Positions 56,508 to 57,422 of a DNA stretch of 64,000 bases are shown here, in pieces (position 1 is the first letter of the stretch; each line of letters opens with the position of its first letter). Position numbers and translations under genes: made by a program. The notes beneath the pieces were generated by a model. That model saw nothing but the letters and a program-made list of their open reading frames with translations. It ran no database searches and was not told where the DNA came from. Source of the stretch: Alphaproteobacteria bacterium (lineage in GTDB: Bacteria > Pseudomonadota > Alphaproteobacteria > RF32 > CAG-239); the NCBI GenBank assembly GCA_017475525.1, contig JAFVFH010000034.1:4375-68374 (forward strand), written 5' to 3'.

Positions 56508-57281
56508 TTAGTATGGCAAAAAATCAAAAACCAAAATGCATGCTCTGCCCTCATTACATGTCCGGCACATTTCTGCCGCATCTGTTGCTGTCATATCTTT
56601 GATACAGATTTTAGAGTCATTGCAAACTTTATCACCATAATATACTTCTGAATTACCTTGATTTTCACCGTTTTTGTCAGCCTGTCGCCACACGCGAAGA
56701 AGGTATAAAGCATCGCTGTTAGGTTTGCCGAATCCCATGATTAAATCCGAACAAAATTCTTTTTTTCCATTGAAATAATAATCAATGCTAATGCGTGAAT
56801 ATCTTGCAAAAAATAAAATTCTGTTATTAAAAAAATCAAAAAGATAATCTCCGCCAGTTTTCCAATTTTGTGGCAATAAGTTAAATTGTTGAACATATTG
56901 CGACAACACAAATCCTTCATTTCCGTTACCCTGCTTCCCAAATTCATCTTTATATTCCGACAAACCCTCTGCCATTGTTTCCAAATCAGAAATGAGTTGG
57001 TTTGTTTTGTGCCTTTTCATCGCATTATTAAAGCCTGCTAATGCACCGGCGCTTAAAACACCAATCACAGCCAAAACCCCAAGCATCTCAACCATGCTTC
57101 TTCCTTTTAAATCCTCCCCCTTAGCGCCTTTGGCGCGGTTAAGAGGGGGGAGGTACGGAGGGGGTGGCAATATTTCAACCATCGACCGCCCATTATCTTT
57201 TTGAAGCCTCACCCTTGAGCGGAGAGGTTTGGAGAGGGTGACAACATTTTTTCCAAATCTCTTCATATTTTTATTATTCAT
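56508..57281 (-). CDS. type-IV-pilin-like protein, paralog 4, leader region disrupted by a palindromic insertion
   Basis: ...QKDNG|RSMVEIL-PPPPYLPPLNRAKGAKGEDLKG|RSMVEMLGVLAVIGVLSAGALAGF: duplicated G|RSMVE junction flanking about 25 inserted aa; C-terminal Cys cluster YYGDKVCNDSKICIKDMTATDAAEMCRTCNEGRAC; functional start uncertain (alternative ATG at MVEML with AAAGGAAG RBS). Confidence 0.55.
   Translation of the reverse strand: MNNKNMKRFGKNVVTLSKPLRSRVRLQKDNGRSMVEILPPPPYLPPLNRAKGAKGEDLKGRSMVEMLGVLAVIGVLSAGALAGFNNAMKRHKTNQLISDLETMAEGLSEYKDEFGKQGNGNEGFVLSQYVQQFNLLPQNWKTGGDYLFDFFNNRILFFARYSRISIDYYFNGKKEFCSDLIMGFGKPNSDALYLLRVWRQADKNGENQGNSEVYYGDKVCNDSKICIKDMTATDAAEMCRTCNEGRACILVFDFLPY
57095..57175. 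repeat. about 70-bp palindromic insertion inside pilin-4 leader-peptide coding region
   Basis: cctccccc-ttagcgcctttggcgcggttaaga-ggggggagg (nested palindrome gcgcctttggcgc); flanked by duplicated atggttga(a/g)at. Confidence 0.55.
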
Positions 57282-57422
57282 ACCTGTTCTCCCGCCCACG
57301 TTCTTTCATTGTCATCCCTTGACCTGCGCAACGCGTCAGGTCATCAAGGGATCTAACCTTCGGTGTTGCGCCTTCGCGCACATACACCGCTTCTTTATCA
57401 TTTTTATTCATACCTGTTCTCC
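57266..57422. mobile_element. MITE-like about 103-bp insertion flanked by 19-27-bp direct repeats that duplicate the pilin-4 RBS/start codon
   Basis: ttattcatacctgttctcc at 57274-57292 and 57404-57422 (minus sense GGAGAACAGGUAUGAAUAA); insert carries the second copy of the small palindromic repeat (57309-57360) and creates a 45-codon uORF. Confidence 0.55.

Follow-up and report, generated by a model that had tools for sequence, protein, structure and literature searches.

Why does a pilin-like gene carry two copies of its own start signal and a leader of 61 residues? This question is raised by gene 4, which is located on the minus strand of the 64-kb stretch of DNA analyzed here (the window, 41% GC). 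The window contains four paralogues with an invariant G|RSMVEMLGVLAIIGVLS, and the leaders of the other three have just 5-6 residues. The open reading frame (ORF) of gene 4 is identical to the NCBI protein IJ870_02975, a hypothetical protein of an 'Alphaproteobacteria bacterium' metagenome-assembled genome (MAG). It reads MNNKNMKRFGKNVVTLSKPLRSRVRLQKDN GRSMVE ILPPPPYLPPLNRAKGAKGEDLK GRSMVE MLGVLAVIGVLS... and continues to a stop at 56508. The 5' end of this gene was probably remodeled by in-frame insertion of dispersed palindromes, head-to-tail duplication or stacking of 5' modules and tandem amplification of one palindrome, within a leader that would be cleaved off and with an essentially neutral outcome.

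Comparison with the orthologous locus bears out the view, put forward in a preliminary description of this DNA, that sequence was inserted here. Three syntenic contigs (L001-L003), with the gene order M78-like gene, pilin, ffh and rimM, lack all the extra DNA. Their pilin is 83% identical to that of gene 4. Their upstream region, including a hairpin followed by a T-run, aligns with the window at 87% and then leads straight to the ATG. The empty site reads ATG ATA AAA ATA AAA GAA AAC GGC AGA AGT ATG GTC GAA ATG, encoding MIKIKEN|GRSMVEM. Since the orthologues carry the empty site, approximately 300 nt in the window are additions. The related contigs differ in what they carry. L001-L003 are empty, L058 contains one palindromic element (A) only, and the window, L056, L004 and L057 contain A, a second element (C) and one to three copies of a third (B). 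An assembly artefact is ruled out by the same architecture in four independent contigs (window, L056, L004 and L057).

The additions start with a duplicated start region. The ribosome-binding site (RBS) and start codon of gene 4 are arranged as GGAGAA-N5-ATGAATAAAAATGAT, and the 19-mer containing them occurs exactly twice in the window, where it had been reported. None is expected by chance, and a BLAST search within the window found no further copies. The extended 27-nt repeat is 89% identical. The first copy occupies the native start position. From its ATG, module 1 encodes MNKNDKE, an 81-nt block with two hairpins and MKERGR. Right after its terminal GGGCG the same 19 nt recur, and at the resulting junction, GGGCG|GGAGAAC, the end of the unit is joined to its own beginning. 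The second module then runs from the repeated RBS through MNNKN..., element C and ...KDN to Gly-Arg. The two modules are alike in their first 19-27 nt and also in their last 15 nt (AAAGAACGTGGGCGG and AAAGATAATGGGCGG, ending in AAAGAnnnTGGGCGG). Because the modules share their 3' ends as well, and because of the GGGCG|GGAGAAC junction, the 19-nt repeat is best read as the start region of two 5' modules and not as the target-site duplication of 19-27 bp that had been proposed. As far as sequence can tell, such a junction marks a head-to-tail duplication, or two 5' modules stacked in series. The two 19-mers of L004 have diverged at 3 positions, which places the duplication before the split between the window and L004 alleles.

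This arrangement also accounts for the upstream ORF (uORF) of 45 codons, which was correctly reported to precede the true start. Module 2 is 106-107 nt long. Because this is not a multiple of three, module 1 is left as a separate 45-codon uORF. Its frame enters the second RBS and stops at a TAA 5 nt after the second ATG, so that the stop overlaps codons 2-3 of the main ORF (ATGAATAA).

Two related sequences identify what surrounds the 81-nt block. P0121/L058 reads RBS, ATG AAC AAA AAT GAT AAA GAA, the 81-nt block and ATG AAA GAA CGC GGG CGG TCG ATG GTT GAG ATG ATT GGG..., continuing into gene 4 and then ffh. Module 1 is 95% identical between L058 and the window, and the mature part is 98% identical. 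P0009, a different paralogue in another MAG, has the same leader (MNKNDKEAVYVRQGATP...TRCAAKWMTVKEYGRSMVEML), with a further element nested inside element A. In both, MNKNDKE-element-KE(R/Y)GR runs directly into SMVEML.... The ends of the 111-nt stretch between the 19-nt repeats (57293-57403; AAATGATAAAGAA... and ...AAAGAACGTGGGCG) are the same codons. It follows that the uORF is a pilin 5' end and that the flanks of the 81-nt block are ordinary leader codons.

The 111-nt stretch had been described as a single miniature inverted-repeat transposable element (MITE) whose target duplication of 19-27 nt created the uORF, with a second MITE of ~76 nt and an 11-nt duplication (ATGGTTGARAT) further into the gene. 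The stretch is indeed derived and holds a dispersed palindrome, an exact 19-nt direct repeat flanks it, and orthologues are without it. Some IS4-family elements (IS1634, IS1549) make long, variable duplications, which also speaks for this account. However, only the inner part recurs elsewhere (53-81 nt). The outer 13 and 17 nt do not; the termini recur solely as pilin leader codons that read into the pilin. No terminal inverted repeats are present, as the comparison of AAATGATAAAG... with ...GAACGTGGGCG, the termini of 57293-57403, found none. In addition, a target duplication does not predict the shared 3' ends of the modules, and the Gly-Arg-Ser (GRS) codons beside the 11-nt repeat differ at 5 of 9 positions. 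We consider a transposon of this kind quite improbable.

The 81-nt block, element A, belongs to a dispersed family. Its DNA fold has an energy of -26.9 kcal/mol (z=-6.4). The same hairpin had been noted next to tRNA-Gln, and the match is clear: 57308-57360 aligns with the copy there at 81% identity over 53 nt (E=5e-9). Within the window, the 20-nt core ACCTGCGCNNCGCGTCAGGT is found only at gene 4 and at this tRNA flank. A scan with the core pattern across one genome per species gave 48 loci. About 30 of these are in rumen or gut Alphaproteobacteria MAGs of 32-45% GC, often as several copies, with up to 4 seen per genome. High-GC genomes account for about 20 of the 48 loci, which are chance matches and were set aside. 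The majority of copies are located away from pilins, and they are tandem or clustered in L034, L026 and L038. The composite of two hairpins is also present in L047 and L038. Despite its pilin-like …SGARSM, L038 is an intergenic repeat cluster and not an A-bearing pilin.

Element A also carries the mark of a conserved hairpin. In the consensus TGTCATYCCTTGACCTGCGCNNCGCGTCAGGTCATCAAGGRATCT, 98.8% of hairpin cells pair across 20 distinct copies. Three pairs are changed on both sides (15 cells), and none of 500 shuffles reaches these values, with the ten central pairs being fixed by the search pattern. On this evidence, element A appears to behave like the repetitive extragenic palindromes (REPs) and bacterial interspersed mosaic elements (BIMEs), as an imperfect palindrome with compensatory change that occurs in extragenic arrays and mosaics. 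Behind the core there is often another conserved block (…TCTTTGCGAAGCNC…AATTTGTAGATGCCTTGAATTTTT…AAAAATAGGCATG…), as in L034:600-900 and window 3370-3500. In L034, tandem copies of the composite follow one another every 136 nt, which makes the A hairpin one module of larger mosaic repeats. At gene 4, AAAGAA is found on both sides of the element (57391-57396 and 57301-57306). Rfam contains no RNA family matching any of the elements (permissive scan of 56000-58200 and gathering-threshold scan of the window); the only hits were a sub-threshold ffh small RNA (sRNA) and two tRNAs.

Further into the gene, ATGGTTGA(A/G)AT occurs twice, at 57172-57182 and 57085-57095, with 76 nt between the copies. 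A palindromic in-frame insert had been described here, and it is present, with its nested palindrome (DNA fold -14.2 kcal/mol, z=-2.5) and the peptide it was said to encode. Its interpretation as an insertion with a clean target duplication does not hold, because the neighboring GRS codons differ at 5 of 9 bases. The 11-nt repeat around element B is duplicated Met-Val-Glu coding sequence. The element B core is found with the same ends in the metagenome contigs L060 and L063, where it is intergenic, beside non-pilin genes and with partial copies adjacent. A BLAST search within the window found no further copies. The two ends of B resemble an inverted repeat, with approximately 9 of 12 positions matching, as judged by eye and from few independent pairs of filled and empty sites. 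The other four of six metagenome matches to the B pattern (L059, L061, L062 and L064) are unrelated sequence with only a 22-mer in common. A loose likeness of the right flank of B to ATGGTTGAGATGCTTGG had suggested that the element carried pilin sequence. This idea was dropped, as the neighbors of B in L060 and L063 are not pilins.

Element C, which the preliminary description overlooked, is a short relative of B in the second module. Its alignment with B covers both arms and the flank that comes after them, and none of 300 shuffles reaches the score. Among homologues of gene 4, leader modules likewise occur in short forms without the central hairpin, as C does relative to B. Both A and B are small, non-coding and multi-copy at unrelated sites, with filled and empty sites, as is characteristic of small dispersed palindromic repeats.

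Element B together with a 9-nt spacer forms an in-frame tandem repeat of 66 nt, with one copy in the window and L056, two in L004 and three in L057. These three contigs were found by the uORF peptide, which is identical in all of them. L056 is identical to the window, and the L004 and L057 proteins have 280 and 302 residues. All 199 mature codons agree between L004 and L057, yet these carry two and three copies, which means that copy number changes much faster than point substitution accumulates. Element A adds 27 codons, the B segment 29 and the tandem unit 22, and module 2 brings its own Shine-Dalgarno (SD) sequence, with 7-nt spacing, and ATG.

All of these additions are located upstream of the last GRSMVE, which is the predicted processing site. 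Gene 4 has G|RSMVEMLGVLAVIGVLSAGALAG, with Gly at -1, Glu at +5 and approximately 20 hydrophobic residues after the cleavage site, the features of a class III signal peptide. The GRSMVE motif is invariant across the best 120 of ~6,600 homologues. By the rules for such signals, prepilin cleavage is predicted between Gly and Arg of the final GRSMVE. The upstream copy is followed by Ile-Leu and element B instead of a hydrophobic helix. We also considered whether GGAAGAAGC-ATG could be an internal SD sequence and start codon giving MVEML.... This was ruled out, as paralogues keep Gly-Arg-Ser at the protein level but encode it with non-SD codons (CGT TCT).

The two GRS triplets appear to differ in origin. 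The upstream codons, GGG CGG TCG, are as in L058, and the downstream GGA AGA AGC is close to GGC AGA AGT in the empty orthologue. The difference is too large for a recent target duplication and points, at least for that junction, to exchange between 5' ends of different origin. Exchange could be extended to all junctions if leader cassettes were swapped between paralogues through the hairpin, T-run and RBS on one side and the near-invariant GRSMVEMLGVLAIIGVLS arms on the other, with misaligned exchange stacking the 5' ends. The affinities of the two GRS copies fit this scheme. So does the MNKNDKE-A-KE.GR leader that gene 4 has in common with P0009 (39% identity between the mature parts), and a leucine-rich repeat (LRR) gene in the window has the same 5' cassette. 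The mature parts of the window and L004 alleles are 92.8% identical (56508-57104) and their remodeled 5' regions 97-98% (57172-57422), which suggests mosaic ancestry by recombination within gene 4. However, the GGGCG|GGAGAAC junction has at most 1-2 nt of homology, so this join was not made by homologous recombination. In addition, no donor for the second module (MNNKNMKRFGKNVV...) was found among 5.8 billion proteins with the concatenated leader peptides as the query, P0121 being the sole match. We regard recombination between paralogues as the general explanation as unlikely, though it deserves serious consideration. The mature region of L004 is in part similar to the orthologue with the empty site (…YNNTSEVKTICSDL…), which also suggests recombination within the gene.

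The uORF and the long leader also raise the possibility of a regulatory device, in line with the earlier suggestion that initiation or leader processing was altered. The uORF would be translationally coupled to the main start through ATGAATAA, the CCUCC-rich arms of B and C would mask the GGAG RBSs, and the number of 66-nt copies would tune translation, export or processing. The SD sequence of the uORF is identical to that of the main ORF, and the uORF stops 5 nt after the main ATG. The 351-nt 5' RNA folds better than shuffles (z=-3.5), with the first RBS paired to UCUCCAA of C in the minimum-energy fold, and copy number differs between otherwise identical strains. However, the minimum-energy structure accounts for 0.0001 of the ensemble, and repeat changes that stay in frame provide no on/off switch. 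The uORF has neither a regulatory codon pattern nor a terminator/antiterminator alternative; it is a truncated pilin leader, unlike a regulatory uORF or leader-peptide attenuator. The uORF and inserts are absent from orthologues and paralogues, which function without them, and the elements are scattered in intergenic DNA. The uORF and the in-frame leader insert exist as described, but a regulatory role for them seems very improbable.

Another suggestion was that the insertions had made gene 4 a pseudogene. If so, the inserts, the uORF and the long leader would have abolished expression or processing, and the intact ORF would merely reflect a recent event. A strong hairpin and a uORF do precede the start, and we know of no precedent for a 61-residue prepilin leader. 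L058 carries a frameshifting deletion of 143 nt. The ratio of non-synonymous to synonymous rates (dN/dS) is 0.19 for gene 4 against the empty-site orthologue and 0.41 within the remodeled lineage. However, the ORF is intact in four contigs. The window and L004, both remodeled, differ by 48 substitutions, of which 17.5 are synonymous and 30.5 are non-synonymous. Neither allele shows a stop or frameshift, and dN/dS remains below 1. The inserts and the changes in repeat number are all in frame, and module 2 keeps a full SD sequence, the 7-nt spacing and the ATG.

Homologues provide a further test. Among the best 120, 49 have leaders of 12 residues or fewer and 71 have leaders of at least 13, of which 57 exceed 30; the maximum is 129. 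Long in-frame leaders are therefore present in 59% of this set. None of the 120 starts at MVEML, the expected product of a frame-breaking insertion, and this is hard to explain if insertions killed the gene. In about 60% of the 120, leaders are built from few recurring, stackable modules (P0012-P0119). Modules X, Y and Z in L053:10001-10170 and L055:1074-1470 are long palindromes, with RNA minimum free energies of -43 to -68 kcal/mol. GCAGATGYG repeats of 9 nt border the cores of X and Y, and one intergenic copy of X is present. Loss of function through these insertions is improbable, and gene 4 probably still works, as judged from its coding sequence.

The history that best fits these observations would be as follows. 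Small palindromic repeats of at least two dispersed families (A, 81 nt; B, 57 nt, with its short relative C) would insert in frame into the leader codons. The segment from the RBS to Gly-Arg would be duplicated head-to-tail, through local duplication or unequal exchange with the 5' end of a paralogue, and this would leave the 19-nt repeat. Element B with its 9-nt spacer would gain and lose copies between strains as a 66-nt in-frame repeat. If translated from the second ATG, all additions would be upstream of the last G|RSMVEML and would be removed with the leader by prepilin peptidase. Because the additions precede the predicted cleavage site and would leave the mature pilin unchanged, the inserts are likely tolerated DNA of selfish or slippage origin and not an adaptive device. 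The simplest reading is that the leader-coding region is the change-tolerant part of the gene, provided that the frame stays open.

Several observations weigh against this history. A clear target duplication can be defined neither for element A, with the possible exception of AAAGAA, nor for B. Five of the 9 bases differ between the two GRS triplets, with Ser encoded by TCG in one and AGC in the other, and local duplication followed by drift is insufficient to explain this. The dN/dS of 0.41 is equally compatible with relaxed constraint. At 61 residues, and 129 in homologues, the leaders are to our knowledge longer than that of any characterized prepilin. L058, the contig with A only, is a 1-kb metagenome contig with an upstream region like that of the LRR gene and the 143-nt internal deletion. 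It could be ancestral to the window allele or have arisen from it by deletion, and the order of the events above is accordingly provisional. The deletion is located at L058:484 (window 56777-56919) and shifts the pilin frame, and gene 4 thus appears to be dispensable in at least one strain, unless L058 is misassembled. L058 also shares the cassette ATTTTTTATTTTGTAGAATTGGAGAA-N5-ATG with the LRR gene (59315-60280).

A bolder reading is that several unrelated palindromic families in rumen Alphaproteobacteria land preferentially in the pilin leader region, perhaps through active targeting, and that leaders of 30-129 residues are translated and processed. The elements may be attracted by the neighboring hairpin and T-run or by the A-rich codons of the leader. 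We find this rather doubtful. If it is true, no known prepilin leader would be longer, and these leaders would provide a natural test of the cargo that a peptidase substrate can carry; leader length or 66-nt copy number might modulate export.

Table. Positions of the features discussed, in window coordinates.
Feature	Position	Strand	Description
Main ORF, pilin-like gene 4	56508-57281	minus	257 aa (61-aa leader and 196-aa mature part); ATG 57279-57281
Functional GRSMVE codons	57087-57104	minus	GGA AGA AGC ATG GTT GAG; predicted cleavage between Gly 57102-57104 and Arg 57099-57101
Element B core	57110-57166	minus	CACCCCCTCCGTACCTCCCCCCTCTTAACCGCGCCAAAGGCGCTAAGGGGGAGGATT; 57 nt; dispersed palindromic family
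Upstream GRSMVE codon copy	57174-57191	minus	GGG CGG TCG ATG GTT GAA; non-functional; followed by Ile-Leu and element B, no hydrophobic helix
Second 5' module (S2)	57186-57292	minus	RBS, MNNKN..., element C, ...KDN Gly-Arg; ends in AAAGAnnnTGGGCGG like module 1
Element C	~57197-57244	minus	Short relative of B; both arms, no central hairpin
19-nt RBS/start repeat, copy 2	57274-57292	minus	Serves the ATG of the main ORF
uORF	57274-57411	minus	MNKNDKEAVYVREGATPKVRSLDDLTRCAGQGMTMKERGRENRYE; 45 codons and stop (57411->57274); pilin 5' end MNKNDKE...KERGR severed from the gene by the second start module
Element A	57310-57390	minus	81 nt (27 codons), two hairpins; REP/BIME-like dispersed palindromic family
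19-nt RBS/start repeat, copy 1	57404-57422	minus	GGAGAACAGGTATGAATAA; native start position, contiguous with upstream DNA common to orthologues
Hairpin and T8 run	57435-57464	minus	CCGACCGCTCCTAAAGGTGCGGTTTTTTTT; 12 nt before the first RBS
Sigma-70-like promoter	57694-57722	minus	TTGACA-17 nt-CATAAT; after the M78-like gene; 11/12 consensus positions; conserved in L001-L004; putative function
Second window copy of element A core hairpin	3370-3422	plus	Intergenic, after the tRNA-Gln terminator (tRNA-Gln 3257-3330)

Database comparisons place the gene 4 family near the type IV pilins. Matches to GspG, PilE and BfpA are weak yet consistent, and all are under the curated thresholds. The Pfam N_methyl model scored 16.5 bits against a cut-off of 21.2, on one paralogue only, and TIGR01710 (GspG) scored 22.8 bits against 88.9. 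Pilins in the PDB match at E of approximately 0.1, and the family profile matches BfpA at E=0.009. With matches that are consistent and sub-threshold, 'pilin-like' seems to be the proper term. At 28-47 kb of the window we found no genes for pilus or secretion assembly or for prepilin peptidase, and the paralogues are scattered among housekeeping genes.

The surroundings of gene 4 are conserved in part. The 417-aa gene directly upstream (57734-58987, minus) has a weak, sub-threshold match to IrrE/M78 peptidases and adjoins the pilin in all orthologous contigs. The predicted promoter is followed by a 5' leader of approximately 270 nt, which is conserved in orthologues and ends in the hairpin and T8 run. 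A hairpin and T-run are found shortly before the RBS of every pilin paralogue (also 38215-38246, 43225-43262 and 31965-32000) and of the LRR gene (60294-60335). The structure resembles a terminator or attenuator and could be a common 5' regulatory module of surface-protein genes. On the other side, the sub-threshold Rfam 'ffh sRNA' match (RF01793) is located at 56379-56422 (minus), just upstream of ffh, and scores 31.7 bits, below the gathering score of 35 (E=0.0016).

Additional repeats are present in the window. Element D is a 133-139-nt repeat with three copies that are 95-99% identical and have unrelated flanks (17451-17589, 33572-33710 and 43891-44029), and it has no Rfam match. One copy directly follows the stop codon of an acrB-like gene and another that of the pilin paralogue with its start at 43265. 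Its sequence is also nested in frame inside element A within the P0009 leader. Directly after the D copy downstream of pilin paralogue 43265-43894, region 44047-44284 contains two identical 62-nt copies and a third at 63% identity. A family of ~66-nt repeats (ACACCGCAACCATTTTGGTTACATTTTT...) is found at 2372-2437, 19063-19128, 48677-48742 and 60437-60502. In two cases it precedes the start of an LRR-protein gene (2246 and 60280) by ~125-220 nt, and it is also found at the start of contig L058.

At the level of this one locus, the outcome is modest: gene 4 has probably remained intact, and its repeat was not left by a transposon. The family-wide pattern is of more interest. In-frame selfish palindromes, best known from Rickettsia, also occur in uncultured rumen Alphaproteobacteria, at this locus and in a family of ~6,600 members, and the leader would be a natural example of a 'safe harbor' within coding sequence. 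For annotation, the locus is a warning that uORFs and long N-terminal extensions in such MAGs are repeat-derived and that start codons may be miscalled. It also raises the question of how long a leader a prepilin peptidase can handle.

Among known systems, type IVb pilins such as TcpA and BfpA share with gene 4 the Gly at -1, the Glu at +5, the hydrophobic alpha-1 helix and a C-terminal cysteine pair. Known leaders have approximately 5-30 residues. In contrast, the gene 4 leader has 61, with up to 129 in homologues, and is repeat-derived; the residue at +1 is Arg, and no pilus or secretion machinery is nearby. The 66-nt unit resembles an in-frame minisatellite, or variable-number tandem repeat, in having one, two or three copies among near-identical strains (one in the window) with the frame kept. 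It differs in being itself a dispersed palindrome, in a leader predicted to be removed, so that no exposed epitope is altered.

Element A is similar to the REPs and BIMEs of Gammaproteobacteria. It is an imperfect palindrome of 35-40 nt with compensatory variation, multi-copy, mostly extragenic, often after terminators and in mosaic or tandem arrays. Classical REPs are defined as extragenic. Unlike them, one copy of A is translated in frame, as far as its position in the ORF indicates, and the family has no sequence relation to enterobacterial REPs. Coding-capable MITEs (ERIC, YPAL/RU-2 and the 107-bp Correia element) provide open frames that are fused to host ORFs, and YPAL is reported to form part of the signal peptide of YPO1552 (PMC2229807). 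In those elements the terminal inverted repeats and the target duplications (TA or short) are defined, whereas for the elements at gene 4 neither could be delimited. In addition, the signal affected here is of the prepilin type (class III), not Sec.

The closest parallel is provided by the Rickettsia palindromic elements (RPEs; Ogata et al. 2000, 2002). According to PMC10969869 and PMC2229807, RPEs are small palindromes found between genes and in frame in many genes, which they do not destroy. Like RPEs, the elements at gene 4 are alphaproteobacterial palindromes, both intergenic and in frame, with stop-free frames that add a peptide. The likeness is functional only. The elements here are smaller (57-81 nt versus 105-150 nt), and the organisms are unrelated (free-living or gut rumen MAGs, 41% GC). 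The RPE peptide stays in the mature protein, whereas the peptide here is predicted to be cleaved off. In addition, insertions here focus on the class III signal peptide of a multi-copy family, where they nest, stack and amplify in tandem. In-frame palindromic DNA is a known kind of event, here in an unusual place. What differs here is its concentration in a prepilin leader, the nesting and stacking of the elements, and the predicted removal of the peptide they encode.

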